Part shown: piece after piece, positions 2,430 to 41,446 of the stretch | Layout of the letters: every line of letters begins with the position of its first letter | How positions within the stretch are numbered: the stretch's first letter is position 1 | IMG/VR virus record: IMGVR_UViG_3300028591_000129 | Span: 32,001 to 96,000 of that record | Source of the DNA: a virus | Lineage: Duplodnaviria > Caudoviricetes | Strand: one strand, 5' to 3' | DNA length: 64,000 nucleotides | Made by a program: the position numbers and the translations under genes | The notes under the pieces: model-generated | Seen by the model: only the letters and a program-made list of their open reading frames with translations | Told to the model about the DNA's origin: nothing | The model's database searches: none

Positions 2430-2843
2430 TTAAGAATCAAGACAAACAAGCTCACTCAAGAAGTATGTCTTTGTAACAGTGCTCACACCGTCAGTAGCAA
2501 CAATCTTGAACTTCTGATTGCCCTTGTCAGCAATCTTAAAGACGCTGTCAAGGTCGTCAAGGTGTCCAATAAGCTCTACGAGACCTGTACCCTGTGAATT
2601 CTCAAGACCAACCTTAACGGAAGTATAGGCTGTCCAATCGTCTGCCTCAAACGTTACTGCAAGGAAGTTGCCCTCGCCCCAAACGTCTGTGATAGGATTA
2701 GAACCGCTCAAGAACTTAAGAGTACCTGTGAAAGAACCGTCAAGGATAGAACTCTCACCGAGCTCTACGTCTGTCTGAATATCGCTAACGGCTACTCCGT
2801 AAACGCTCCCATCAGTCATAGCCTTTACTGTGGGAGCTGTCAA
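2430..2843 (-). CDS. Beta-rich (Ig-like/decoration) domain, probably a -1 frameshift extension of the major capsid protein
   Basis: Overlaps the capsid stop in the -1 frame directly after A AAT TTT; no clear SD before its TTG. Confidence 0.65.
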   Translation of the reverse strand: MTAPTVKAMTDGSVYGVAVSDIQTDVELGESSILDGSFTGTLKFLSGSNPITDVWGEGNFLAVTFEADDWTAYTSVKVGLENSQGTGLVELIGHLDDLDSVFKIADKGNQKFKIVATDGVSTVTKTYFLSELVCLDS

Positions 2844-3739
2844 AAATTTCCGTCAGAAATGTTGAACTGAATAGCGTCAGCCTTGTTATTGAGAATGAAT
2901 ACGTCCTCGAAGGACTCCTCGTAGTAAACCCACTTACCCTCTGAACCTGCGGAAGGCTCGTCAAGTCTTGAGAATGTGTAAGATACAGGTGTCAAGACTG
3001 CGGTGGGGTGAACAAGGAACATATTAATCTGCTTTGCACCGTCGGCTACTGCCCAACCTGTTGTGAAGTCATACAGTGTTCTCATAAGAGTTGCAGGAAC
3101 GCCAACAATCTCAACCTCGTCAAGACGAGAGACGATACGATTAAGTCTGTTCTCACCGCCCTCAAGGTCGATAGAACGAGAAATCTTATCAGCGTTCTTG
3201 AGCATTGTCCTTACTTCGTTTGTGCAGTAAAGAATTCTGCCCTGTACAGGTACTCTTTCGTTATCCATATTAAGCATAAGCTTATCAAAGATAGGGAGTA
3301 CAGTAGACTCGGAAACAGCAGTTGTGTCGGCTGTCTTACCAAGTCCTGTCCAATCACTGTAAATCTTGGAAATGCAGTAAGCGTCCATTTCAGGGAACTT
3401 CTGCTCTTCGTTCATTACACGTGTAATGTTAGCGATAGTAGCTGTGAGGTTTGTCTGCTCAATGTCCATAGGGTGTACAAGAGTAGACCACTTTCTCTCG
3501 TTCTCAAGAACCTTGGGTTCCCAGCTATTTGTGAAGTTTCTCTGTGCTGTTGCGATTGTGTCTCTGTCAGCATCAACACGACCTGTTGTCTGAATAGAAG
3601 GAATCTCGATTGTTCTTGCGTTAATCCATCTGTACAGTCTGTTGTTGGGTGTGCTGTAAAGTGCACCGAAGTTCAGGGCATAAGGGAATGCCTGTGCAAG
3701 TGCTCTTTGATACTGCTTTGCGTAATTAAGAGGTGGCAT
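2840..3739 (-). CDS. Major capsid protein
   Basis: NYA..Y...L.Q...IEIP.I...G..D..R...EEQKFPEMDAY...INMFLVHP...DVFIL.NK pattern; follows scaffold gene; SD AAGGAG before ATG 3739. Confidence 0.9.
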   Translation of the reverse strand: MPPLNYAKQYQRALAQAFPYALNFGALYSTPNNRLYRWINARTIEIPSIQTTGRVDADRDTIATAQRNFTNSWEPKVLENERKWSTLVHPMDIEQTNLTATIANITRVMNEEQKFPEMDAYCISKIYSDWTGLGKTADTTAVSESTVLPIFDKLMLNMDNERVPVQGRILYCTNEVRTMLKNADKISRSIDLEGGENRLNRIVSRLDEVEIVGVPATLMRTLYDFTTGWAVADGAKQINMFLVHPTAVLTPVSYTFSRLDEPSAGSEGKWVYYEESFEDVFILNNKADAIQFNISDGNF

Positions 3740-3766
3740 AATGTTTCTCTCCTTCAAAATAAATGT

Positions 3767-4492
3767 TTATTCGTGTGCTCTAACACCTACGAAGCCAAAA
3801 TCAAAGACGTCTCCGCCGTCGTCATTTGACGCGCCGGGTGTTGATGCAACCATTGTGGGTAACGGCTCTTGCTTTGCGGGCTCTGCGGGTGCAGGCTCGG
3901 GTGCAGGTGTCGGTTCGGGTACGGGTGCAGGGGCAGGCTCAACATAGAATGCGTCGTCATTTTCCTCTGCATACTTCGCTCTGAAGTCGTCACCGCCGAT
4001 AAGCTTATCGCCGTCCATTTGGAGACCGCGTTCAATCATTGCTTTAACGAAGTCTCTCTTTGCCGCCTTGGACGAGAACTTTTGTGTGTTCGCGTATTCC
4101 TTAACAGCAAATTCATAAGATTGCTGACGCAACTTGTCCTCTTGTGCCTTAATATCAGCCTCGTACTTTGCCTGCAAGTCAGTCATACTTGTGCTCAATT
4201 GCTCAAGCTTTACCTTGTCCTCGCCTGCCTGTTCCAACTGCTTCTTCAAGCCCTCAAGGTCTGCGTCACGTGTTGTGATAGTCCCATTCAGGTCGTTAAT
4301 CTGTGCGTTGAGTGTCTCAACCTGCTGATTAACTTTCTCAATGTCGGACTCGTACTTTGACTTGCTTACATAGTTACCGTCTTTCAGGTTAACGAACTTT
4401 ACGTCGTTTTCCTTGACGAGTGCTTCAAACTGCTCGTAAGTCAATGTACCGTTCTCTGCCTTTTCGAACAAATCCTTAATGGTTGTGCTCAT
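3767..4492 (-). CDS. Capsid scaffold protein (Phage_GP20-like)
   Basis: YVSKSKY motif followed by a long coiled coil and a Pro/Ala-rich tail; lies upstream of the capsid gene. Confidence 0.8.
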   Translation of the reverse strand: MSTTIKDLFEKAENGTLTYEQFEALVKENDVKFVNLKDGNYVSKSKYESDIEKVNQQVETLNAQINDLNGTITTRDADLEGLKKQLEQAGEDKVKLEQLSTSMTDLQAKYEADIKAQEDKLRQQSYEFAVKEYANTQKFSSKAAKRDFVKAMIERGLQMDGDKLIGGDDFRAKYAEENDDAFYVEPAPAPVPEPTPAPEPAPAEPAKQEPLPTMVASTPGASNDDGGDVFDFGFVGVRAHE

Positions 4493-4846: not shown

Positions 4847-6721
4847 TTAACTGTTCTCCGACACCTGTTCAGGTGCTTGCTCTTGAGTATCCTCACTTTG
4901 GGAAGCCTGTTGAGCTATCTTCTGAAGATTAACGGGTTGTGCCTGCTCTTGAGGATTTTCACCCTGCCCCTGTCCTTGCTCTTGTCCCTGACCGTCACGA
5001 ACCTGCTGTCCGAGTGCGGAAGACATCATCATATTGTTCTCGATAGCCTCACGCTTCTCTTCAGCAATCTTATTAAGTGCGTCCTGTGCCTGTGCTTCAG
5101 TCTCACCGAAGTACCACATACGAAGAGCAATACGGCTCTCAAGCCCCTTGTCATACAGCGCCATTCTTGTTGCAAGCTCGCTCTCTTGGTCAATGAGAAT
5201 ACTGTCGTCCCACTCAAAGGATACGTTGTACTTACCCATTTTAGAGGTATCCGCAACTCTCTTGCCGTCTTTATCCACATACTTAATATCGTCTACGATA
5301 TTGTACAGCGTGCAGTAAACGTTCATTGCGTATACAACGTCTTCAAGGGCAACCTGCAATGCGTTCTGTATCTCTCTGTTAGCCGAGAATGAACGCTGTC
5401 TTAATATCTTAATCTCCGTAGCCGTACGCGCCTCGTGTGCCACGTCAGAGATAGTACCACGGCTCATTGCACATACGTCCTCAATACGCATAAGAATGTT
5501 ATTGAGACCATTGATAAGTGACGTATCACGAAGAGACGGGGAGAACGGTCTGTATGTGTCAGATTCACCAAGGTCGATTTGTCTGTAAAGTCTCTTTTGG
5601 TGCTTCGGCATTACAGAGTTTCCACCGCCGTTATCGTTGTTCATAAACTCAAGCGCGTCACGGTCAATATCAATTGCAAGCTCACCGCCCTCAAACTCCC
5701 ATATAAGTCTTGAGTACTGTTCGTCAGCGTCTCTGATAAGGTCTCTTGCACGACCAAAACCGCTCATACCAAGCGGGGAATGAGGGTCAATGATATTTGC
5801 TTCGGGCATTTTGAAGTAACCGAAGAGCAGTCTGTCTACGTTCTTGATAGTTACCGCCTGCGGTATATCTTTCCACTCGGGGACTTCCGTTAACGGTATC
5901 TGTGCGCCCAAAGAAACATTTCCGATACTCTGATTGTCAGGCGCGTTTTTCTGCTTAAATGCGTAGTTCTCGATATGCACATTTCCACCTGTAAGCTTAT
6001 GTCTCTCAAGGCGCGTAAATGTCGTATCTCCGTCTACCTTTGTCTGTATAAATGCAACGTCACTCAAGTTGCCCGAACCGTCAAATGAGATAGGGTAGAA
6101 ACAGTCTGCCTGAATGAAATCAAACTCCATAAAGTACTTGTATGTCTCTTCCGTCTCGGTTTGTTGGTCTTTTGCGACGCCTGCTACACCGCTTACCTTG
6201 GTGCGGACAACATACGGCTTGATAATCAGGCTTCCCTTTGCGATACCATACTCAAGCTGTGCACGTATCTTTGATATGAGCTTCTTTTGATACTGCTCGT
6301 TCATATAGTCAGCACGCTTTGTGTCGCCGTCTACGGTCTCCTGCACGACGGTCTTGGACTGTCCGCTTACACGAATATTGCCGAACGCGTCAGCTTGAGG
6401 CGGGAAGTAATTAGGATTTTCCACTCTCTCGGAAGACGTAGGTGCTGTAATCTCAGATTTAAGTTCAAGCACCGCCATACGAGCTTTCTCACTCGCAATA
6501 AACGCGGGAAGTCCCATAGAAACTACTCGCGTCGGGTCGTCTAACGTAGGCTCTCTTAACCATTCAGCCTCATTTCGATACATTGCATCCCATTCTTCAA
6601 TGGCATTGACCATCTTGTCACTTACAGCAGGTGTAACGTGCAAGGTTTCCTCGATTTTTTGATTATATCCAAGCATTCTTGAGAAAAACTCCTTTATCTT
6701 ATCCCAAACAGAAGAGAACAT
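4847..6721 (-). CDS. Portal protein (SPP1 gp6/A118-like)
   Basis: YFKMP.AN.ID..SPLG.S...D.QYSRL.WE...RTATEI...WDDSI motifs; Gln-rich tail. Confidence 0.9.
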   Translation of the reverse strand: MFSSVWDKIKEFFSRMLGYNQKIEETLHVTPAVSDKMVNAIEEWDAMYRNEAEWLREPTLDDPTRVVSMGLPAFIASEKARMAVLELKSEITAPTSSERVENPNYFPPQADAFGNIRVSGQSKTVVQETVDGDTKRADYMNEQYQKKLISKIRAQLEYGIAKGSLIIKPYVVRTKVSGVAGVAKDQQTETEETYKYFMEFDFIQADCFYPISFDGSGNLSDVAFIQTKVDGDTTFTRLERHKLTGGNVHIENYAFKQKNAPDNQSIGNVSLGAQIPLTEVPEWKDIPQAVTIKNVDRLLFGYFKMPEANIIDPHSPLGMSGFGRARDLIRDADEQYSRLIWEFEGGELAIDIDRDALEFMNNDNGGGNSVMPKHQKRLYRQIDLGESDTYRPFSPSLRDTSLINGLNNILMRIEDVCAMSRGTISDVAHEARTATEIKILRQRSFSANREIQNALQVALEDVVYAMNVYCTLYNIVDDIKYVDKDGKRVADTSKMGKYNVSFEWDDSILIDQESELATRMALYDKGLESRIALRMWYFGETEAQAQDALNKIAEEKREAIENNMMMSSALGQQVRDGQGQEQGQGQGENPQEQAQPVNLQKIAQQASQSEDTQEQAPEQVSENS

Positions 6722-7735: not shown

Positions 7736-8114
7736 TCTCCTTGATTAAAATGTCATACTCTCTCGGGTGCACGTTGATAGCTTCTCTTACGCAATGCACC
7801 ACGTATACCGCAGGACGGTCAACTCTTGTGAGTGTCTCAACTGACACAACCTTGTCCCTTCCCATATCATTTGACCCGCGAATTAACTGATTTACGAATT
7901 CAAGTACTGTCGGATTTTCCATATCAGTCTTCCCCCTTTTATGATTATTCCTTGACAAACTGCTTACCGTTGATTGTAACTATAAGCCCGTCTTCCCGCA
8001 TTGCGTTGATATACGCATTAACCCAATCTTTAGGTGTCTCTCCGTCTTCCAAATCGACTACGGTCTTTGCATATACAAGCATTTCCTTTTTGAATTGTGT
8101 CAATGTCTGCATTT

Positions 8115-8408
8115 TCAGTCTTCCCCCTGTGCTAACGCTTCAAGTATTCCCTCACAGAACTCGTCAATGAAGTGGATGCCCTCTTCAGTGCCCTCTCCAT
8201 ACTTCGTGACGTTCGGGAAGTCTCCTGTACCCTCAAGGTACATAATGACCAAGCCGTCCTCGTCAAAGATAATGCTGTCCTTGGACTTTGCAGTCGTGTT
8301 CTGAAGAGCCCAAAGGCGCAACATAGCATTTCCAAGACCACTCAATGTCTTGTCAATTTTGCCTGTCTTTCTGTTAAACCTTACGCAATAAGTCTTCTTA
8401 AGTTCCAT
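8115..8408 (-). CDS. Hypothetical protein in a promoter-ACTCATA cassette
   Basis: MELKK start after ACTCATACAAAGGAG. Confidence 0.6.
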   Translation of the reverse strand: MELKKTYCVRFNRKTGKIDKTLSGLGNAMLRLWALQNTTAKSKDSIIFDEDGLVIMYLEGTGDFPNVTKYGEGTEEGIHFIDEFCEGILEALAQGED

Positions 8409-8473
8409 TTTAGTTTCTCCTTTGTATGAGTTTTTGATTTGTACCCTTATGGTATCACGGTAGTAATTACTTG

Positions 8474-9321
8474 TCAAGCGACATTTTCTACCCACTTGAA
8501 TTCACCCCGCTCGTAGAAATATGGCTGATGGGTAAGCTCCCATTTCATTGTGACCATATAGGCGGTATATCCGTTAGCCATAAGCCCGATAGCCACGTCC
8601 TCTGCCATATCCTTGCTGAATGCCTTGGGGCTCTTTTCCTTATCCCACTCGGCGTTATGCTTGGGCAGAATATCTGTTACGAACACTGCACCGTATGCGG
8701 TGCAAACCAACACGTAATAATAGTTCTTCTTTGCCATTGTCTTACTCTCCTTTATGTGTACTTACATTCCTTAAGCTGTCTGATATTCCAACGGATATTC
8801 TTGGCTTCGTTCTTGGCGTACTTAAGCTCACGCTTCCAATACACTTTCCACTCTTCGTCAGTCTCGACAGCAAGCACTTCCTCGTACCTCTTAATGTCTC
8901 TCTTCCAAATGGCAAGGATTTCTTTCTGCTTGTCAATCTGTCTGTCGACGTCTTCGTTCCAAATAACCTGCGCTTCAGTCAGGTCGTTATTTACGAGCTT
9001 CTTACCGTACTCGTAAATCTTATCCTTGGGTATGTCAGAATTCATATACATAACCTCAAGGTCTTTGAATACCTGAAAATTCTGTGCAGTGTCTCTGCAA
9101 CCCGTACCTGCAATAAATTCTTCGTATAACATTGATTACACCCCCTCACGTTTAACTGAAATTACCTTGTACTTGTCTTCGTGCTCGTGCAAAATCCGCA
9201 CGACACGGTGATAATCCTCATATGTGTATGACGTGTGCTCTCGCGCATATCCGCCAAAGGGCTCTTTGTACAGCCACACATATCTAATCGTGATAGGCTT
9301 GCGCATTTTCTTTTCTTCCAT
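8474..9321 (-). other. Three small hypothetical genes (9136-9321, 8752-9132, 8474-8737) in one ACTCATA-led unit
   Basis: ORF track; TTGACA promoter near 9389 and ACTCATA at 9338. Confidence 0.6.
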
Positions 9322-9427
9322 ATCTGTTTCTCCTTTCTATGAGTTTCTATTTGCACTTATAAGGTAACATAGTAAGTATAGTTTGTCAAGCATAAATTTA
9401 GGACAGCTTTTGACTGCCCTAAAAGTC

Positions 9428-9544
9428 TTACTTTTTCTTTTTGCTTTCCTTGTACTTCTTAATCTCGCTCGGCTTGGGCGCAGGGCGCTTCTTTACGAGT
9501 TTTACAGGGTTAAGCAGGTCTCGATTTTCGATTCTCTTTGTCAT
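9428..9544 (-). CDS. 38-aa Lys-rich peptide following the JAB gene
   Basis: MTKRIENRDLLNPVKLVKKRPAPK...; SD GAGGTG. Confidence 0.6.
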   Translation of the reverse strand: MTKRIENRDLLNPVKLVKKRPAPKPSEIKKYKESKKKK

Positions 9545-9549
9545 TTTAA

Positions 9550-10299
9550 TCACCTCTCTAATCCGTATGTGTATCCGTACTTGCCTTGGTTCTCTAACAG
9601 CCAATTGTGAGCATTTATATGTGCCACATTGTTTATCCTGTTCAACTGTGCCACGCAATTGTTATATGCTTGGTCGTTCTGTGTGGCGTACTCGGCGCGA
9701 CTTATCTCACCTCGCACGCACCTATTCCACAACTCCCTTGATAACGCCCTATATTCTCGTGTTATCGGTGACGCTTGTGCACTTGCTGACCTGCTATTCT
9801 CACGTATAAAGTGTGCATAGTCATTAGCAAACGCAACTGCACTTGCGCGGTCAGCAATCATTGCGGGCGACTTGGTTATGCTGTAAGTGCCCTCGGAAGC
9901 AACTGCACGAAATGAAGATATATTGAACCTTGCCCAATTGTTAATATCTGCGTCGCTGAATGTGCCACCAAGTTCGTCACTTGAGTAGCCTGACCTCGGG
10001 TGGATATGTGAAAAATAATCACCATTGATAAATGCTCGTACAGACGACTTAACAGCGCCCTTACCGCCTCTACGTTCCTCAAGCACCGTTCCGTCAGCAG
10101 TTACTACCATACCAAATTCTATCTTGGCGTTCTTACGCTTACTCTCAAACTCTTGTATGCTCCTTGGCATTACGGGGCTTCCGCTATCCGCACTGTATAC
10201 GAGCGGAATATCAACGGTAATCTGACCTCTTGCGCCAAGGTCAACGTCCGTTACGCCTATCGAACGGCTGTTATTATTGTCACTTCCCGAGCTTCCCAT
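9550..10299 (-). CDS. JAB/MPN-like metalloenzyme effector with MGSSG N-terminus
   Basis: E...HIHP...TFSDAD matches the JAMM pattern E-HxH-S-xx-D. Confidence 0.7.
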   Translation of the reverse strand: MGSSGSDNNNSRSIGVTDVDLGARGQITVDIPLVYSADSGSPVMPRSIQEFESKRKNAKIEFGMVVTADGTVLEERRGGKGAVKSSVRAFINGDYFSHIHPRSGYSSDELGGTFSDADINNWARFNISSFRAVASEGTYSITKSPAMIADRASAVAFANDYAHFIRENSRSASAQASPITREYRALSRELWNRCVRGEISRAEYATQNDQAYNNCVAQLNRINNVAHINAHNWLLENQGKYGYTYGLER

Positions 10300-10314
10300 T
10301 AGCTTCTTCTCCTG

Positions 10315-10452
10315 TCACTTCTTACTGTTAAGCTTCTTCTTAAGTGCATTGACTGCCTTTGTATTCTTTGTGTTCTTAACAGGATTGTTTGTGTCATTGT
10401 CCGTAGCGACAAACCTCATTTTTGCGTTGTTGTCTCTCTTTGTTCTCGGCAC
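10315..10452 (-). CDS. 45-aa basic peptide, class A (AKxRFVAT)
   Basis: GTG start 8 nt after a GGGGGG SD; shares AKxRFVAT with 13201-13305. Confidence 0.6.
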   Translation of the reverse strand: MPRTKRDNNAKMRFVATDNDTNNPVKNTKNTKAVNALKKKLNSKK

Positions 10453-10469
10453 TTTCAATTCCCCCCTTT

Positions 10470-11207
10470 TTATAAGATTACGTCTATCTCCAAGTACGCC
10501 GCGTTCTCGCCTCTTGCTGTTGACCACTCACGTACTATCCTCGCGTCACCCGTGAAGTTATAGTGCTGATTTCTCTGCACAAGTACCTCGTGTTCTGCGT
10601 GATTGTTCGTCATTATCGCACCCGTACCCTGTTGGACTACTACCCTAAATCGTACAGGGTATGCGTCGAATGTTCCGTGCCCCTTTGTGTATGTCAGTGA
10701 CGTATATGCACGCTGTGTATAGTCCGTTGACTGCAACACATCTCGAAGTGCACTGCTCATACTCGGGTCTGACGCCATTGCCACTTTAAGCCTGCCAAGC
10801 TCGCTCTCGCTTAATCCGAGTATACGAGAAGCTGACCTCAATGACACGTACCTGTACGCTAACAAGTCCTCTGACATAGGCTTCATACCGTTGTCTATCT
10901 GTGCTATGTCCCGCTTAATGTCGCTCTCGCTGTACCCCAAACGTGTCCAATCACTGTCAGGACTTCCGACCTTGCCTGTGTTCAGATAATAGTTAATATC
11001 GAATGCCTTTGAGGTCTTTACATACACCTTTTTACGGGACGGTGCGTCAGGGTCACCTGCTTCATAGCCTGTCTGACCCATATCATTCTGCAACCTGCGC
11101 ACTTCCTCACGCTGTTCCGACCTTGTAAGCCCCTCTAAATTGGTAGCTTCCTCGAACGGGTCGCGCTCCGAAGCGGTGTTTGTTATACGTTCCCCTCGAC
11201 TGCCCAT
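10470..11207 (-). CDS. ADP-ribosyltransferase (VIP2/C2-like R-S-E, ExE type), MGSRG N-terminus
   Basis: LAYR...YTSLT...AEHEVL motifs. Confidence 0.8.
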   Translation of the reverse strand: MGSRGERITNTASERDPFEEATNLEGLTRSEQREEVRRLQNDMGQTGYEAGDPDAPSRKKVYVKTSKAFDINYYLNTGKVGSPDSDWTRLGYSESDIKRDIAQIDNGMKPMSEDLLAYRYVSLRSASRILGLSESELGRLKVAMASDPSMSSALRDVLQSTDYTQRAYTSLTYTKGHGTFDAYPVRFRVVVQQGTGAIMTNNHAEHEVLVQRNQHYNFTGDARIVREWSTARGENAAYLEIDVIL

Positions 11208-11211
11208 TCGA

Positions 11212-11349
11212 TTACTTCTTCACAATCTTAAGCAGACCGTTAGGCATTTTCTCGAACTTCTCGTCAGGCTTAAGCATTCTGCCATATGCAGGTGCGTCAA
11301 ATCCCGACTTCTTTTTTGCGTTCTTCTTCGCTGTCTTCTTGTTAGCCAT
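11212..11349 (-). CDS. 45-aa basic peptide, class B (MANKK...KSGFDAPAYG)
   Basis: Has its own promoter (11381-11409); paralog of 12196-12357. Confidence 0.7.
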   Translation of the reverse strand: MANKKTAKKNAKKKSGFDAPAYGRMLKPDEKFEKMPNGLLKIVKK

Positions 11350-11380
11350 TACCTTAACCCCTTTCGTGTTGTTTGAGTAT

Positions 11381-11409
11381 ATACTAACATAGTAAGTATA
11401 ATTTGTCAA
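11381..11409 (-). promoter_or_regulatory. Promoter between ART stop and peptide gene (near-identical copy at 12388-12416)
   Basis: TTGACA-17 bp-TAGTAT within a ~40-bp duplicated block. Confidence 0.7.
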
Positions 11410-11411
11410 CA

Positions 11412-12170
11412 TTAGCTATAATCGTGCTCGATACGTCTGACGACTTCAAGTACAACACGATACTCGGCGCGTCCGTGTGCTCTTCCGCTACCGCCTACGC
11501 GCTCATATGATACAGGCATAAGAATAAGGTCTCTGTTTAACATAAACTCGCGTTGTCTGTCGCCGTAGTAAGAATTAACGTCGTCGTTACCTAACCACAT
11601 ACCGTAGCCTGTGCCCGACGGAACTCTAATCTCGTACTCAATCTGCTTGTTACTTCCGATTGTGAGACCCTCACGTGCCGCACCCGTAGACATATTACCT
11701 CTTGAATATATTTCCTGTCCTATCATACGCTGTATATCCTCTTCCGTTGCTGTCCTGTTTCCTTTTCCCAACAATAACTCAGCCGTTGCACGACGGTGTA
11801 CCACAAAAGGGGTATTAATCGTTGAACGGTCAAGGTACTTATCGTATATCCGAGTGGCGTCTTGGTCTTCCTTGTCCATTTTACTGAAACCCTCGTACTG
11901 CTGTCCGTCCATAAAATGACCATATACCCAAGTGTGGTCAAATGCTAACCACTCGTCACGGTCTTTATTTATCTCGTCATAAAGCTCTTGGGCATTACTA
12001 TGCTCCAAGAACCAACGATTAGTCGCGCCCCCGTCACGCTCATAATTATGCGTATCCGAGTGCCGACTATCGAATGTTTTATATTCGTCCTTGTCCTTGC
12101 GTCTTACAGGCAGTTCACCGCCCGATACTGCGCCTGTGCTCCCCGCAGAAACTCTTCCTGTACTTCCCAC
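11412..12170 (-). CDS. ADP-ribosyltransferase (R-S-E, QxE type), MGSTG N-terminus
   Basis: VVHRR...NMSTG...QREFML; paralog of 12420-13175. Confidence 0.8.
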   Translation of the reverse strand: MGSTGRVSAGSTGAVSGGELPVRRKDKDEYKTFDSRHSDTHNYERDGGATNRWFLEHSNAQELYDEINKDRDEWLAFDHTWVYGHFMDGQQYEGFSKMDKEDQDATRIYDKYLDRSTINTPFVVHRRATAELLLGKGNRTATEEDIQRMIGQEIYSRGNMSTGAAREGLTIGSNKQIEYEIRVPSGTGYGMWLGNDDVNSYYGDRQREFMLNRDLILMPVSYERVGGSGRAHGRAEYRVVLEVVRRIEHDYS

Positions 12171-12195
12171 GGCTAATTCTCCTTACACCAAATGC

Positions 12196-12357
12196 TTATT
12201 TCTTTGCTCCCTTGGGTGGTATCATTCTGTATGTTCCGTCGGGAAGCTTCTTGTATGTTGTTCCCTTGGGTACGATTTCACCGTAAGCGGGTGCGTCGAA
12301 ACCGCTCTTTCTCTCTGTTGCCTTTGTGTTCTTCTTTGTTGTTTTCTTATTTGCCAT
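12196..12357 (-). CDS. 53-aa basic peptide, class B
   Basis: Hand-translated MANKKTTKKNTKATERKSGFDAPAYGEIVPKG...; SD AAGGAGG; own promoter. Confidence 0.75.
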   Translation of the reverse strand: MANKKTTKKNTKATERKSGFDAPAYGEIVPKGTTYKKLPDGTYRMIPPKGAKK

Positions 12358-12419
12358 TTTTAGTTCCTCCTTGTATTGTTTGAGTATATACTAACATAGT
12401 AAGTATAGTTTGTCAACTA

Positions 12420-13175
12420 TTAATCGTAATTATGTGGCTGTCTGCCTATATACTCAAGAATTACACGATATTCAGGCGCGGTATCCCACGTCCTATCTTC
12501 AATATCTTGCCTCTCACTTTGTGATATACGCTCATAACCAACTATACGATATGCAGTGTCTCTATTCAGCATAAATTCACGTTGTTGGTCTCCCCAAGTA
12601 GGGTTTACACTATTGTGTCCTATATACATTCCTGCACCAACAGAGCCCGCAGGGATACGGATAGTATAGTCAATAGGCTTGGAAGCGCCTCTTCCGATAG
12701 TAAGTCCGTCTGCCGCTGCTCCCGTAGACATATTACCGAGAGATATGACCTCATTACCTACTGCATTACGCAACATTTCTTCAGTAACACTGCGTCTGCC
12801 CTCTCCGAATAATAACTCGGGCGTAGCTCGTCTATGTACTTCAACGCCCTCATTAATGACGGAACGGTCAAGAATATTATCGTAAATACGCGTGTATGTC
12901 TGTCTTGTGTCGTCCATATCAGAGAACTTGCCATACTGTTGACCGCCCATAAAATGACCACGTTCCCAATAGTCAAACGCGTTCAAATGCGCCCTCACCT
13001 CGGGGTATAACTCTTCAACATTAGAATTTTGTTCAAACCAACGGTAGGTTGCACCTCGGTCACTTTCATAATTATGTGTGCCCTCTGCTTCCCACTTAAA
13101 TTGGTGGTACTTGCCGTCACTTGCACCCGCAAGCATTCGACTTCCCTTATTTTCGTTACCCCCTGTGCTTCCCAC
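12420..13175 (-). CDS. ADP-ribosyltransferase (R-S-E, QxE type), MGSTGG N-terminus
   Basis: EVHRR...NMSTG...QQREFML. Confidence 0.8.
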   Translation of the reverse strand: MGSTGGNENKGSRMLAGASDGKYHQFKWEAEGTHNYESDRGATYRWFEQNSNVEELYPEVRAHLNAFDYWERGHFMGGQQYGKFSDMDDTRQTYTRIYDNILDRSVINEGVEVHRRATPELLFGEGRRSVTEEMLRNAVGNEVISLGNMSTGAAADGLTIGRGASKPIDYTIRIPAGSVGAGMYIGHNSVNPTWGDQQREFMLNRDTAYRIVGYERISQSERQDIEDRTWDTAPEYRVILEYIGRQPHNYD

Positions 13176-13200
13176 GGCTAATTCTCCTTATCCTGACTAA

Positions 13201-13305
13201 TTACTTCTTCTCGGGCTTCTTCTTTCCCTTGGTAATTGTCATTCCTTTGCCTGTTGCAACAAAGCGAGCTTTTGCTTTCTTTGTATCTTCCTTGATATTT
13301 GCCAT
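13201..13305 (-). CDS. 34-aa basic peptide, class A
   Basis: Hand-translated MANIKEDTKKAKARFVATGKGMTITKGKKKPEKK; promoter TTGACA-16-TATAAT at 13335-13362. Confidence 0.7.
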   Translation of the reverse strand: MANIKEDTKKAKARFVATGKGMTITKGKKKPEKK

Positions 13306-13358
13306 TTCCGACTTCCCCTTTCTCGTTTTCTTACATTATATCACGGTAATTACTACTG

Positions 13359-14057
13359 TCAAGGCACTGTCTCTACGGATATAATCAACTGTCTTCCGTC
13401 GGCGGACACTTGTATATCATTAATGCCATAACCGACATTACGGGACAGCACGCACTCCGATTCCATTCCTGTCGGACTGAATATGGCGGGTGTACCCGCT
13501 TTTGCGTCGATATTTATGCGTACTCTACGATACGAGAACTCCGAATCGGTCAAGGACGTGTCATATGTTGTTGACATATATGCGTGCTCACGCACAAAGT
13601 CACCAAGAAGCACCCTGCGAAGCTCTGCTACGTCATTTTCGTCGAACTTTCTAAAGCCTTTTGAGGCGTCCATAAGGCGTCCTCTCACGTCGTCGTCCAA
13701 CTCTGCCCCACCGTTCGTTATCAAATTCTCTAAATAGCCATTATCCGCCATTCGGACTAACTCAATATCTTTGTTGAGTGGAAGCATACTTTTGTCCATT
13801 GCGTCTATCGTCCTGTATGCCTCTGCAAGCTCGTCCTCGTCACCATATTCAAGCTCAAGTGACGCGCGTACGCTTATTCCGTCGGCTACCGCGTCTCGTA
13901 ATGCGCCGTTAATCTTCCACGAGTTTGCAGACTGAAAATAGCCCGAGTTATATATGCCTGACCTGTGCACCATATGTGTAAAGTCGTCGGGGTTTATCTT
14001 CGTATAATGTGTATCTACGTCCGAGTAGTTATCTTTGCTACCGCCTGAACTGCCCAT
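13359..14057 (-). CDS. ADP-ribosyltransferase (R-S-E, ExE type), MGSSGG N-terminus
   Basis: ELVR...YMSTT...MESECVL; starts at a TAATG overlap. Confidence 0.8.
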   Translation of the reverse strand: MGSSGGSKDNYSDVDTHYTKINPDDFTHMVHRSGIYNSGYFQSANSWKINGALRDAVADGISVRASLELEYGDEDELAEAYRTIDAMDKSMLPLNKDIELVRMADNGYLENLITNGGAELDDDVRGRLMDASKGFRKFDENDVAELRRVLLGDFVREHAYMSTTYDTSLTDSEFSYRRVRINIDAKAGTPAIFSPTGMESECVLSRNVGYGINDIQVSADGRQLIISVETVP

Positions 14058-14206
14058 TATCTCTTTTTCCTTTTTCGCTCTGTCCAACCGCTCTCTTCGA
14101 TAGCCTTGCCTTGCGCTTCAGCTTTCCTACGGGCATTTTTGGCGCGATAGACTTTGCCCGTCGTACCCCATTGGTATCCGTCTTTACCGACCTTATGAAC
14201 AGGCAT
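14057..14206 (-). CDS. 49-aa small basic phage protein (MPVHKV...GYQWG..GKVY)
   Basis: Hand-translated; SD GAGGT; TAATG coupling to the ART gene. Confidence 0.65.
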   Translation of the reverse strand: MPVHKVGKDGYQWGTTGKVYRAKNARRKAEAQGKAIEESGWTERKRKKR

Positions 14207-14211
14207 AGCGA

Positions 14212-14361
14212 TTACCTCTTCTTATCCTTGACAATCATATGACGTCCGTTGACCGTTACCCAACGCTCGCCTTTCTTAAGCTGACTGTCAATCTTGTCGA
14301 AGCTTGCTCTCTCCTTGGCTGTGACCTTATGCGGTCTCGGTGCGCTCTTCTTCTTCGCCAT
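14212..14361 (-). CDS. 49-aa basic peptide (MAKKKSAPR...ERWVTVNGRHMIVK)
   Basis: Hand-translated; SD GGGAG; extended -10 TGTTATACT near 14407-14415. Confidence 0.65.
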   Translation of the reverse strand: MAKKKSAPRPHKVTAKERASFDKIDSQLKKGERWVTVNGRHMIVKDKKR

Positions 14362-14417
14362 AATGTTCTATCTCCCATTATCCTGTCGAGGGCTTATTCA
14401 CTTATCAGTATAACATA

Positions 14418-14447
14418 AAAGTGCCTCAAGCGAACTCAAGGCACTTT
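14418..14447 (-). terminator. Hairpin terminator after the TROVE gene, overlapping the next promoter
   Basis: AAAGTGCCT...AGGCACTTT inverted repeat. Confidence 0.55.
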
Positions 14448-14452
14448 ATATC

Positions 14453-15925
14453 TCACGCTGTTATGTCCTTATACCTGTCAGACGCAAGAATTTCATTCAT
14501 AACGTCCAACGGTGTCTTCCCCAAGTTATCCATTACCTGCTTCATAATGTTCGGTGAGTATCCTGACACGAGGGACACGCAACTGTCCGACATAGACGCG
14601 TGGTAAGTAGGGTTGACCGCATTCACGTTCCAATAGATAACGTGAGGCAGTCTGTACCCTGCACGCTCGTACTCACCGCGTACGACGTCAGTGAACGTCA
14701 TAAAGCCGTCACTATCACAGCCACGGACACAGTCTACCTGCATATCGGATATGACACAGATAGCTTCAGGCATTTCGTCAGGGTCGATATGATACTTAAC
14801 GCCTATCTCAAGTATCCTGTCAAAGACAGCCTTGAGGTTAGTGGAATTACCCCACTCGGAACGATGTACGTCTTCGTACATTTGCCCAAGCGTCTCACCT
14901 TTAATCTCTTTGAGCGTAGGTGTGCTTGAGAAAGTAAAGAACTTGTCCTTGAACTCACCGACGTTGTTCTGTGCGAAGTAGATACCAAGAGAGATAGCAA
15001 CCGTGAGCGGTGACATACCGCCACGCCCCCAAGTCATTGAGCCTGAAGTATCCACGACGGCAAGGGCTCTTGTCGTGACCTTGGGTAACTGTGCCCACAT
15101 AGTGTTTATCTCGACAGAGTTATCACCCTTGACCACTTTCTGCATAATGTCACACGGATTAGCCGTCGCCATATTCATTTTGGCGTCACCTGTCTTGACC
15201 TTGGAAATGTACGCGGTGTATCTTTCCCCGTCGTGCCTCTTGAACGCTTCCCTGTTCTGCACGTTACACTTTGAGGGGACTGTCTCGTAGTCAATCTCGC
15301 CCCAACGGTTCGTGGACATTTTAGCTTCAGGGGTGTCTATCGCTTTTCTCAAGGCAACAAGGGCTTTCCTGTACACTGACATAGTCTTAAAGGAATACCC
15401 TAACTTCTTGGCTGTAAGCTTACCTAACTCTGCTGTCTTCTTTGAGGACGCATTCGGTGTGGCAAGCCACTTCGAGAGCAAGGATACAGGCTTGCCCTCC
15501 GCGAGGTTATGCAAGTCTCTGCGGTACTGACAGGCAATGAAGTCCCACATAGCGTTCTCGGCAGGTGTCCCTATGAGACTGTACAAGTCTTTAGCTCGAC
15601 CAAACTCAAGCACGTTGGGAATGTTCTTGACGACGCTGTCAGTATGCGTCTCCGCCAAGTGAGCGAAAATCTGATTAAAGGCGTCTCTCTCCCCAAGCCC
15701 GCCACGAATGTCACGGGCATAGAACAACAGCTTCATAGCACTGTCCTTATCTTCCTTATACGCCTCGTCGAACAGGTCACATTTAGCGTACGCAGACGCC
15801 CCGCGAAGAGCGCCCACTCTCCCAAGGAAGTCAAGACACCTGTTCGAAGTAGACGTAAGGCAGTCAGCCCCATTCCACGTCTTGCCGTGTGTCAGTTCAA
15901 TGTTAAACGCGTCAGAAAAATTCAT
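14453..15925 (-). CDS. TROVE/Ro60-like protein with C-terminal vWA domain (DUF2828-type)
   Basis: RDIRGGLGER, SLLSKWL, VVDTSGSM (MIDAS), ISDMQ, IYWNV, VSGYSP motifs. Confidence 0.85.
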   Translation of the reverse strand: MNFSDAFNIELTHGKTWNGADCLTSTSNRCLDFLGRVGALRGASAYAKCDLFDEAYKEDKDSAMKLLFYARDIRGGLGERDAFNQIFAHLAETHTDSVVKNIPNVLEFGRAKDLYSLIGTPAENAMWDFIACQYRRDLHNLAEGKPVSLLSKWLATPNASSKKTAELGKLTAKKLGYSFKTMSVYRKALVALRKAIDTPEAKMSTNRWGEIDYETVPSKCNVQNREAFKRHDGERYTAYISKVKTGDAKMNMATANPCDIMQKVVKGDNSVEINTMWAQLPKVTTRALAVVDTSGSMTWGRGGMSPLTVAISLGIYFAQNNVGEFKDKFFTFSSTPTLKEIKGETLGQMYEDVHRSEWGNSTNLKAVFDRILEIGVKYHIDPDEMPEAICVISDMQVDCVRGCDSDGFMTFTDVVRGEYERAGYRLPHVIYWNVNAVNPTYHASMSDSCVSLVSGYSPNIMKQVMDNLGKTPLDVMNEILASDRYKDITA

Positions 15926-16671: not shown

Positions 16672-17352
16672 TTAACGCTTCCAAAAAGCTATAAGCGGTT
16701 CTGTATCTACCTCGGGGAATGTCACGCGCTCGACCTTGCAACCTGTCTTGATTATTGCTTCCCCTATGCTCAACGTTTCCGCGCCTGCAATACCTAAAAT
16801 AACTCTGCTCTCTGATACTGAAGAAACGGGGACGGATACACGTGTATCAAGGTTACACTTCAAACGTGTTGGGATAACCTCTGCATTGATATTCTGTGTT
16901 GCACAGATTAACTGCACCCCTGCCGCACGTGCTATGCGTGCCAAACGCTCTAATAACTCAAAAGCTCTTTTACTTGTAAACGCAATGTCTGCAAGCTCGT
17001 CAACGATTATATAAAGCTTCGTGCCTGTATACTTGCGCGCGCCTGCTTGTTCCATTTCGCGGTAGCGATAGTCTACGAGTGCCAAGCACTTATTAAGCAA
17101 TGCCTCTATGTCCTCGGGCTCTGTCGCGTAGCCTGCGCAATGCGCTGTATGCTTAAAACGGCTCAACTCAACGCGCTTAGGGTCTATCAAAACCATTTGA
17201 CATTCTGCGGGGTTATGAGTGAGAATGTCATATATGATATTCTCAAGAAAAGTTGACTTTCCGCTTCCTGACGCGCCCGCGATTAATGCGTGGTGTGCGC
17301 TTGCTGTGATTGCTGAAAAGACGGGGTTTCTGTTGATTGTCATTGTTGCCAT
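16672..17352 (-). CDS. FtsK/SpoIIIE-family ATPase (motor domain only)
   Basis: H.LIAGASGSGKS, LIDPKRVEL, YIIVDELAD, ARAAGV.LI.ATQ, GAETL motifs; no membrane or gamma domain. Confidence 0.9.
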   Translation of the reverse strand: MATMTINRNPVFSAITASAHHALIAGASGSGKSTFLENIIYDILTHNPAECQMVLIDPKRVELSRFKHTAHCAGYATEPEDIEALLNKCLALVDYRYREMEQAGARKYTGTKLYIIVDELADIAFTSKRAFELLERLARIARAAGVQLICATQNINAEVIPTRLKCNLDTRVSVPVSSVSESRVILGIAGAETLSIGEAIIKTGCKVERVTFPEVDTEPLIAFWKR

Positions 17353-39742: not shown

Positions 39743-41446
39743 TTAATTACCTTTTCTGTTGCAGTACTTCTCAAGAGCATAACGACAATTATGCACAACA
39801 ACCCCGTTAGACAGTACAAAATTGTGGTAGATTGGCACTTCCAAGTCATATACCGCAGTCCTTTTAGCTGTCTTCGTCACGGACTTAACATACGCGTAGC
39901 CGTCTTCACAAAATAATGCGTCCTCGTGGGTAAGCTCGTCAGCTCTCACGTAACCTCTGTCTGTGGTTAACAGCCTGTGGTTATCAGTACATTCAACTGT
40001 CCTACCGTCCTCAAGTGTAACTCTGTAAATCTCGGCATAATCAAACGTCTTTCTGCAATGACAATAAGGTGTCAAAACAAATCTGTTCCGCTTAATATCA
40101 TACGCGTGAAGATAACCCTCGGTATCCACCATATCCTCGATTTTCTTATTTCCGTCAGCAGTAAATACCTCGGTATCTCCCGTAAGGCACGCGTCGATAC
40201 TGTGGTCGTTACCATCAGGATATTGAGATATAAAGTTGCCGTCTTTGTCTTGTTCATACTCATAATTAGCAAATTCCCAAAACGAATCAGGACAATATTT
40301 CGGGTCAATATAGATATGATTAAGTCCCTGCAACCACTTGATGCCGTAGCGCCTGCTCTCCGCTCCCTTCTGTGCGCCACGAATAAACGCTCCGTATGCT
40401 TTGAAGTCAGCAATGGACTTTGGCTCGGCGCTGTCTGCTATTACCTGCTCTGTCTTATCCACTAAATGTAGCTTCTCATAAAGCTCGTCGAATATCTCGG
40501 CATTACGCTTCTCGTGTGTGCTGTACTCCCTGAAGATATACAAATCAAGCCTTGTCGGGTCAAAATGCATACGGACAAATCGTGTCGGGTCTTTTGCATA
40601 GCCCCAATCTATGCCGTTGTATATATGGTCAAATGTATCTGAACGCCTACAACCATTGTCCATAATCTCGTCGGCGTCGAACTCACATACATTAGGGAAG
40701 ACGTCTCCACCTGTACCGACAGCAATTCCGAGATACTCGTGCGCGTATGCTCGCTCATTTCTCTCTTTCAGTAACTCGGCTTCCTCGAAGAACGGGTATC
40801 CCAACCATTCAGGCGGTACGTCCAAATATGTATTGTGGGTAACGAGAACTCCGTCACGGTCTTTCATATCTTCCGCATACTCGTTCGCCCAATTGTTTCT
40901 GCTTATCGGCGGGTTGAACGTCATAAAGTTCCAAAAGTCTTTTCCGCCTCTCATTGTGGACTGAAGAACCTTACGCATTTCGTTCTCGCCTGCGAATTGG
41001 TCAAGCTCTTCCCACCAAGTAACTCCGATATAGCCTTTCTCTACCTTAATAGACTTGACCTTGTTCGGGTCGTCCATTCCCATAAAGATTATCTTCTGCC
41101 CCGTCGGTCTGTATACTATCGGGTTACTGTATATCTTCGGTATATGAAACAGTGGTGTCAGCCCAAGCTTCTCTATTCCCCACACTACCTGTGAGTACAC
41201 GCTGTTCTGTATGGTAGCTCCGACCTTACGGAAACATACCGCATTGACAAGCGGGTTACCGACAATGAGCAACGGTATCGCTATGCCCCCGTAAAATGAG
41301 GACTTCGTGCTACCTCTTCCGCCCTTACCTATATAATGCGTGTGCCCGTGTGTCAGTATATCCTTAAGTATCGGTTTGTACATCGGTATCACACACTCAT
41401 TAACGGGTATGCTTATCTCCGCGCTCTCTACCTGTCTGCCTGCCAT
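39743..41446 (-). CDS. terL: Terminase large subunit (PBSX/SPP1-like) containing an intein
   Basis: GGRGSTKS Walker A, WWEE, TFNPP, GIDWGY, ADSAEPKSI, DHSIDA...RYA. Confidence 0.93.
   Translation of the reverse strand: MAGRQVESAEISIPVNECVIPMYKPILKDILTHGHTHYIGKGGRGSTKSSFYGGIAIPLLIVGNPLVNAVCFRKVGATIQNSVYSQVVWGIEKLGLTPLFHIPKIYSNPIVYRPTGQKIIFMGMDDPNKVKSIKVEKGYIGVTWWEELDQFAGENEMRKVLQSTMRGGKDFWNFMTFNPPISRNNWANEYAEDMKDRDGVLVTHNTYLDVPPEWLGYPFFEEAELLKERNERAYAHEYLGIAVGTGGDVFPNVCEFDADEIMDNGCRRSDTFDHIYNGIDWGYAKDPTRFVRMHFDPTRLDLYIFREYSTHEKRNAEIFDELYEKLHLVDKTEQVIADSAEPKSIADFKAYGAFIRGAQKGAESRRYGIKWLQGLNHIYIDPKYCPDSFWEFANYEYEQDKDGNFISQYPDGNDHSIDACLTGDTEVFTADGNKKIEDMVDTEGYLHAYDIKRNRFVLTPYCHCRKTFDYAEIYRVTLEDGRTVECTDNHRLLTTDRGYVRADELTHEDALFCEDGYAYVKSVTKTAKRTAVYDLEVPIYHNFVLSNGVVVHNCRYALEKYCNRKGN
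39788..40189 (-). mobile_element. Mini-intein, 134 aa, without homing endonuclease
   Basis: CLTGDT start, block B TDNH, VYDLEV...HNF...VVHN/C end. Confidence 0.92.

Follow-up and report, generated by a model that had tools for sequence, protein, structure and literature searches.

The window considered here is a 64,000-nucleotide stretch of viral DNA, bases 32001-96000 of the 104,810-bp IMG/VR virus record IMGVR_UViG_3300028591_000129, which CheckV rates as 100% complete. At 14361-9428 on its minus strand, four C3/VIP2-type ADP-ribosyltransferases (ARTs; two with an ExE loop, two with a QxE loop) and one JAMM-like metalloprotease alternate with seven basic open reading frames (ORFs) of 34-53 amino acids (aa). 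What purpose does this array serve? The explanation that we favor, with a probability of roughly 0.55, is that the enzymes are virion cargo kept inactive by cognate plug peptides, in a free-standing form of the MuF toxin-immunity arrangement. In such a scheme, five free-standing effectors would be encoded at the entrance of the head module, and their cognate peptides, serving as immunity factors, would plug the active sites and leave the enzymes silent in the producing cell. Promoters of the peptide genes would keep peptide in excess of enzyme. An N-terminal tag would direct the enzymes into the virion, in place of the covalent MuF fusion of relatives, and the enzymes would reach the next host together with the DNA, no longer plugged. 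Rather than the kind of system, what appears new is that the enzymes stand alone with a tag, that their partners are very small and of several families, and that five modules form one array.

A sequence-only reading of this DNA had described four R-S-E ARTs and a JAB protein alternating with Lys-rich ORFs of 34-53 aa, and every element that it listed was found again, on the minus strand. It had also remarked that the ORF track mis-started peptide ORFs; the mechanical list indeed gives forms of 66, 70 and 76 aa for three of them. From its 5' side, the array comprises the following features.

14418-14447, minus strand: terminator-like hairpin, a 13-pair stem followed by a T run; it ends the upstream DUF2828 gene, and the array begins after it
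14212-14361, minus strand: 49-aa basic ORF on the enzyme-less 5' side, with an MAKKK start and a Lys/Arg C-terminal tail (ORF reading; no Pfam or PHROG matches)
14057-14206, minus strand: 49-aa basic ORF, likewise with no enzyme on its 5' side, its stop sharing TAATG with the ART1 start; phrog_31267, E 2e-6, of unknown function
13359-14057, minus strand: ART1, 232 aa, ExE type (E-S-E), N-terminal MGSSG; PF03496, E 9e-12; phrog_3895; R102, S162 and E201 invariant
13335-13362, minus strand: consensus sigma-70-type promoter (12/12, extended -10 TG) between the ART1 stop and peptide A
13201-13305, minus strand: peptide A, 34 aa, class A, AKARFVAT
12420-13175, minus strand: ART2, 251 aa, QxE type (Q-R-E), MGSTG, GTG start; PF03496, 21.7 bits, E 1.4e-4
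12388-12416, minus strand: promoter-like site (10/12, extended -10 TG) 5' of peptide B
12196-12357, minus strand: peptide B, 53 aa, SGFDAP family (class B), predicted to lie on the ART2 active site
11412-12170, minus strand: ART3, 252 aa, QxE type (Q-R-E), paralog of ART2, MGSTG; PF03496, 24.0 bits
11381-11409, minus strand: promoter-like site (10/12, extended -10 TG) 5' of peptide B'
11212-11349, minus strand: peptide B', 45 aa, SGFDAP family (class B); its C-terminal half is a variant one
10470-11207, minus strand: ART4, 245 aa, ExE type (E-H-E), MGSRG; PF03496, E 6.5e-11
10315-10452, minus strand: peptide A', 45 aa, class A, AKMRFVAT; GTG start after a G-rich ribosome-binding site
9550-10299, minus strand: JAMM/MPN-like metalloprotease (by motif and model), 249 aa, MGSSG, C-terminal helical hairpin
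9428-9544, minus strand: peptide C, 38 aa, third type; counterpart of the peptides after JAMM-like genes elsewhere, minus their Cys
9397-9423, minus strand: terminator-like hairpin closing the array

The enzymes

By motif and profile match, four of the genes are R-S-E ADP-ribosyltransferases of PF03496, C3/VIP2-like in character. PF03496 scores fall from 45.1 bits for ART1 and 42.4 for ART4 to 24.0 for ART3 and 21.7 for ART2, with the cut-off at 23.4; ART2, the one below it, is 48% identical to ART3 by BLASTP and 51% by alignment. All four proteins keep the Arg / S-T-S / [QE]xE triad in the family alignments. Across the 18 sequences of the QxE family, R115, Q198, R199 and E200 are invariant and S150 is nearly so, and the eight non-QxE sequences share invariant R102, S162 and E201. 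Profile searches of the PDB with both ART groups returned C3stau2, C3, Certhrax, Listeria Lmo0066 and the CdtA/iota/VIP2 group as nearest, with C3stau2, Lmo0066 and Certhrax matching ART2. An ExE loop marks Arg-specific ARTs. Only two homologs of ART1 were found by word-indexed search, and a single-protein scan of IMG/VR with ART2 returned no match. A third ART family, encoded at other loci, is related to ART1 (profile comparison probability 83%, E 8.5e-6).

No Pfam model, JAB included, matches the fifth enzyme, whose homologs form 219 clusters. Residues E61, H98, H100, S115 and D118, which make up the JAMM motif (E ... HxH ... S..D), are invariant in 60 sequences, and most of the 150 homologs among the matches listed have an HxHPR...GGTFSxxD string. 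Its structural model has a predicted local distance difference test score (pLDDT) of 94.9, against 44.6 for a fold from the single sequence. JAMM/MPN proteins are the top but weak matches of the model (Foldseek E 0.035; PfJAMM1 Z 5.9, root-mean-square deviation 3.7, 107 residues aligned). We call the protein JAMM-like: the zinc-binding/catalytic motif is present, and the fold matches are weak.

Pairing of enzymes and peptides across phages

Does the class of a peptide follow the enzyme upstream of it, as the sequence-only reading held? Taken by itself, the match within the window is weak evidence and could be chance, because there are only four pairs and the ART2/B and ART3/B' pairs are one tandem duplication, promoter included. 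The pattern nevertheless holds at independent loci. An alignment-based scan located QxE-ART homologs, with 31-56% identity, at seven IMG/VR and three metagenome loci. A class B peptide lies directly after 11 of the 12 QxE-ART genes for which downstream DNA is available, the exception being L005; the 11 include a frameshift-split copy (L010) and a MuF-fused copy (L006). Beyond the peptide comes a portal gene, another ART, a scaffold gene or a contig end, so the peptide goes with the enzyme upstream.

Other enzyme families have partners of their own. Eight of nine JAMM-like genes, counting the window and seven further loci, have a basic ORF no longer than 45 aa behind them. Five of the peptides after JAMM-like genes (L021, L022, L023, L024 and L025) carry a CGG motif, [DSN]-C-G-G-[IVY]-K, whose Cys is missing from the window's peptide C and from the L027 peptide. 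Peptides with D-[YF]-D-R-[WF] are found behind the third ART family in three loci, and GYFN peptides behind a metallopeptidase-like family in two. When the six peptides that follow non-QxE ARTs are aligned, a single Arg is invariant and the next residue is F, W or Y. For class A, the sequence-only reading had suggested that the conserved Arg could be a decoy substrate. As the word-indexed search gave only two homologs of ART1, the link between ExE loops and class A rests on the two pairs of the window together with this Arg-aromatic pattern.

The class B family is large and almost unannotated. A peptide profile recovered at least 139 clusters of 42-89 aa, for which there is no Pfam model; their consensus consists of a basic N-terminus, SGF[DE]AP, G, PKGT..KKNPDGT and a Lys tail. 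The only annotation is a single "hypothetical protein" in a Blautia metagenome-assembled genome, and peptide B falls in unnamed clusters of the protein atlas. Do peptide homologs occur apart from ARTs? A peptide-first scan of IMG/VR yielded three loci, all three with an ART upstream, and a search with a degenerate nucleotide pattern of the class B motif yielded one locus. Divergence of ARTs and of peptides is correlated (Mantel r 0.48, p 0.002), a correlation that shared descent alone could produce.

Some further features of these loci may be mentioned. At L010:7917-8689 the QxE ART is broken up over two frames that overlap (7917-8396 and 8360-8689), and the class B peptide downstream is intact. 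Class B peptides have two C-terminal subtypes, PKGT..KKNPDGT and LKPDEK..QPNG.LKIVKK, and the window has one of each, after ART2 and ART3; the P0002-P0252 and P0003-P0280 pairings are indirect, and we draw no conclusion on subtype specificity. Arrays of four tagged proteins stand beside terminase genes at L022:2680-6103, L025:2458-5938 and L027:1622-4231. They include families of 137-267 aa that have no Pfam match or were left unexamined, most with a basic peptide of their own. Judged from this gene content, the putative cargo extends beyond ARTs and JAMM proteases.

Predicted binding and promoter placement

How could peptides of this size act on the enzymes? We predicted the complex of ART2 with peptide B from alignments of 18 and 10 rows, respectively. 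The interaction prediction score from aligned errors (ipSAE) was 0.91 (runs at 0.90, 0.92 and 0.91), and the best of three controls scored 0.00; the ipSAE mark is attained by 58 of 80 solved complexes and by 2 of 110 mismatched pairs. The runs have at least 79% of contacts in common, and the partner pLDDT is at least 65. The confident contacts join residues 16-29 of peptide B, its conserved motif, to R115-T118, E120-E125, N141-S150, Q198 and E200 of ART2, which are NAD-binding and catalytic elements. Recall of a known complex is unlikely here, because peptide B has no solved structural relative. The class B peptide is thus predicted to sit over the catalytic site of ART2.

Why would such small genes have promoters of their own? 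According to the sequence-only reading, three peptides have one right after the ART stop, and we recovered these sites, which match the consensus at 12/12, 10/12 and 10/12 positions and all have an extended -10. No terminators were seen inside the array. With promoters directly 5' of peptides and a terminator-free array, a peptide would be transcribed from every promoter of its enzyme plus one. With this layout, transcription of a peptide gene would be no less frequent than that of its enzyme. Both this placement and the studied Bxa-Bsi pair (see below) favor an inhibitor over a substrate. The pairing across phages, the ART2-peptide B model and this promoter placement, all computational, support the earlier proposal of a polymorphic effector/inhibitor system with cognate peptides.

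The N-terminal tag and the proposed link to the virion

All five enzymes start with MGS[STR]G. Over residues 2-8 of this tag, compared in ten phages, unrelated enzymes of the same phage are 69% identical versus 33% for orthologs of different phages, and none of 5000 permutations was as extreme. Tag codons differ synonymously within a phage, which argues for selection on the protein sequence of the tag. The tag behaves as would be expected of an address label that co-evolves with a phage-specific receptor. Among full-length JAMM-like homologs, 78 of 126 start with MG, and Gly makes up 26% of the first 20 residues as against 8.6% elsewhere. Four JAMM-like homologs have, instead of the start Met, an L27/Prp-type leader with ..Q[FL]F immediately N-terminal to G(G)RG. 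Ribosomal protein L27 bears this motif, as do capsid, scaffold and tail proteins of Firmicutes phages, and the Prp protease cuts it there (PMC5744158). In both the leader and the MG forms, the mature protein would begin with Gly.

Two other origins of the tag were considered. A relic of a fusion linker was ruled out by the absence of the tag at the L006 MuF-ART junction, and eukaryote-style N-myristoylation of the MG start was dropped, the hosts being bacterial.

A connection to the head is suggested by the position of the array, 2.7 kb upstream of the portal gene and the scaffold and major head genes after it, and by relatives. A QxE-ART domain is the C-terminal part of the MuF protein L006 (PF04233, E 3e-20), and a JAMM-like domain is placed likewise in P0129 (4.6e-19). 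A MuF fusion is accepted as the hallmark of phage toxins that the head delivers (PMC5576092, PMC9503650). PF04233 itself has no match at E<=1 in the 104,810-bp genome, and a MuF gene is absent from four of five related records. The HK97-type prohead protease also gave no match, PF04586 being the only model tested. In smaller relatives the modules lie directly beside terminase or portal genes. Promoter-like sites similar to those of the array occur throughout the genome, including 5' of the scaffold gene.

A wider generalization is possible, and we offer it tentatively, with less confidence than the proposal for the window. The Gly-rich phage-specific tag, with its mature N-terminal Gly, would be an undescribed label that loads free-standing enzymes into MuF-less heads, and each cargo family would have its micro-peptide cap (SGF[DE]AP on QxE ARTs, Arg-aromatic on other ARTs, Cys-Gly-Gly on JAMM proteases) plugging the active site until the two are parted by packaging. 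Such a modular system would be general among phages of gut bacteria.

Alternative explanations

Several observations weigh against packaged enzymes with plug peptides. A substrate peptide would give the same contacts on ART2, and the complex model covers one cognate pair among five. Enzymes without a peptide exist: the QxE ART of L005, a second ART (L014) and the JAMM-like protein of L026. Plugging alone leaves unaccounted for the Lys-rich ends common to all peptide classes; descent from one ancestor, instability or an additional function that all have, for example nucleic-acid binding, may lie behind these ends. The terminase is 25 kb from the array, and small non-structural ORFs lie between the array and the portal. 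Finally, consensus sigma-70-type promoters in the array could mean early expression by the host polymerase; with similar sites genome-wide, the point is undecisive.

Could the enzymes instead act early and without being packaged? In that case they would be host-takeover enzymes like T4 ModA and ModB, transcribed by host RNA polymerase, and the peptides would be timers or specificity factors that switch off or redirect them. Three near-consensus promoters with an extended -10, the layout of the block as a terminator-bounded transcription unit, and the failure to find a MuF protein or prohead protease to handle cargo would all fit. We nevertheless consider this explanation unlikely. It leaves unexplained a phage-specific tag under protein-level selection, the MuF-fused forms of the domains and the Prp-type leaders, and the constant position by terminase and portal genes in smaller relatives, and late genes too have similar promoter-like sites.

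A different role for the peptides is still less probable: they could themselves be the products, basic DNA-binding internal peptides comparable to T4 internal proteins or adenovirus core peptides, modified or processed by the neighboring enzyme and packaged with DNA. The Lys-rich N- and C-termini of all classes suggest a common nucleic-acid-binding role, the invariant Arg-aromatic pair recurs behind non-QxE ARTs, two of whose groups have an ExE loop, and the modelled peptide lies in the catalytic cleft with a substrate-like placement. Against this, class B has no invariant acceptor, the position after its aromatic residue being D, E, N, A, G or S; a one-to-one match of enzyme families with dedicated substrates would be unusual; and the MuF-fused ART retains its peptide, as toxin-immunity pairs do. 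Least probable of all, in our judgment, are toxin-antitoxin modules for addiction, abortive infection or superinfection exclusion, unconnected with the virion and directed at competing phages within the infected cell. The enzymes belong to typical toxin families, and the layout of a toxin followed by a small antidote with its own promoter is the expected one. The phage, however, has no recombinase match and is probably virulent, which leaves no lysogen to protect, and neither the tag nor the connections with MuF and Prp would be explained. Packaged enzymes silenced by cognate plugs account best for these observations.

Comparison with known systems

The nearest parallel is the MuF toxins (PMC5576092), in which ART or metallopeptidase toxin domains are encoded in the head module and a small putative immunity ORF (<150 aa) comes after each. 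In the same manner a small ORF follows all five enzymes of the array, and one is found at 11 of 12 QxE-ART loci and after eight of nine JAMM-like genes. The MuF-ART Bxa is neutralized by a small binder, Bsi, which has been modelled in its active site, and interface mutations abolish the protection (PMC11699363). Bxa was studied with both Bsi and BAH (PMC11699363); no second immunity of the ADP-ribosylhydrolase type was seen in the array. Unlike MuF toxins, the enzymes of the array stand alone, with a Gly-rich N-terminal tag instead of a MuF domain and with no PF04233 or integrase match in the genome. Their partners are Lys-rich peptides of 34-53 aa rather than small globular proteins, and there are five modules in tandem. 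Jamet et al. (2017) described MuF toxins in temperate phages only (PMC5576092). With no MuF domain and no temperate sign, the array falls outside the defined MuF toxin family.

Phage T4 offers a second comparison in Alt and the internal proteins IPI-III (PMC9503650): an ART delivered with the DNA, as we propose here, a short N-terminal signal common to unrelated cargo, and small basic proteins alongside. The tag of the array differs in being unrelated in sequence to the T4 capsid-targeting sequence, no T4- or HK97-type protease was found (PF04586 only tested), and packaging is in our case a prediction. With polyvalent or head-associated ART effectors (Iyer et al. 2017, PMC5512222; PMC9503650), too, the ART genes neighbor those of terminase and portal, packaging is predicted, and a phage has several effector domains. 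In the array, by contrast, the domains are separate genes, each with a partner peptide, and not parts of one multidomain polypeptide.

The propeptides of matrix metalloproteinases keep these zinc metalloproteases latent by a cysteine switch. By analogy, the CGG peptides of five JAMM-like loci might ligate the catalytic zinc, a likeness that is purely conjectural. The CGG peptide differs from a propeptide in being a separate gene product, and peptide C of the window and the L027 peptide have no Cys.

Implications

If the proposal is true, phages can carry sets of injected enzymes without structural fusion, and a seven-residue label would be enough for loading, usable to bring chosen proteins into heads. 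The inhibitors of 34-53 residues would then make up several undescribed families, mostly missed by automatic annotation, the largest with at least 139 clusters. They would also supply ADP-ribosyltransferase and JAMM-protease inhibitors that are specific and ready to use. Toxin-immunity logic, until now argued for temperate phages and lysogens, would serve a probably virulent phage as well, and its purpose would shift from protection of the lysogen to silencing of cargo during assembly.

Genomic setting and source

Nearly all genes of the window are on the minus strand. The structural genes nearest to the array on its downstream side are as follows.

4847-6721, minus strand: portal gene, 2.7 kb downstream of the array; phrog_533, E 3e-103
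3767-4492, minus strand: scaffold gene, after the portal; phrog_194
2840-3757, minus strand: major head protein, after the scaffold gene; phrog_422

The large terminase (39743-41446) lies some 33 kb upstream of the portal, with small ORFs, the DUF2828 gene and the array in between; in smaller relatives terminase and portal are adjacent or have only effector modules separating them. The phage is probably virulent, because no tyrosine or serine recombinase (PF00589, PF00239) has a match in the complete 104,810-bp record. Neither the array nor ART1 nor ART2 had a match among 50,697 GenBank phages in megablast and tblastn searches. In 185,579 species genomes, scanned twice, no copy was detected, the three peptide matches being chance hits to the NPDGT string.

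The whole stretch is present in a sheep-gut metagenome, which may be the source of the phage, and parts of it, at 85% likeness or more, in bovine-gut metagenomes. Bovine-gut pieces from X3 and X5 are mostly 95-99% alike and those from X2 mostly below 95%; the X2 contigs leave most of ART1 uncovered, a contig gap being no proof of absence. Contigs of a sheep-gut metatranscriptome cover several peptide/enzyme junctions (8500-15000) at 100% identity; their depth is 2-4, carry-over of DNA is possible, and we do not count them as expression.

Upstream of the array, across the terminator, lies the gene for a 490-aa DUF2828 + DUF7788 protein (14453-15925, minus strand; phrog_850, "RNA-binding protein", E 1e-116). 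The 49-aa ORF at 14212-14361 (minus strand), which has no family match, contains an RWVT.NG.H string that recurs near the N-terminus of a 209-aa protein, L025:6214-6843, encoded after the L025 array. For a 226-aa protein at 16672-17352 (minus strand), the match to phage proteins resembling FtsK/SpoIIIE is confined to their ATPase part (phrog_1358, E 9e-48).

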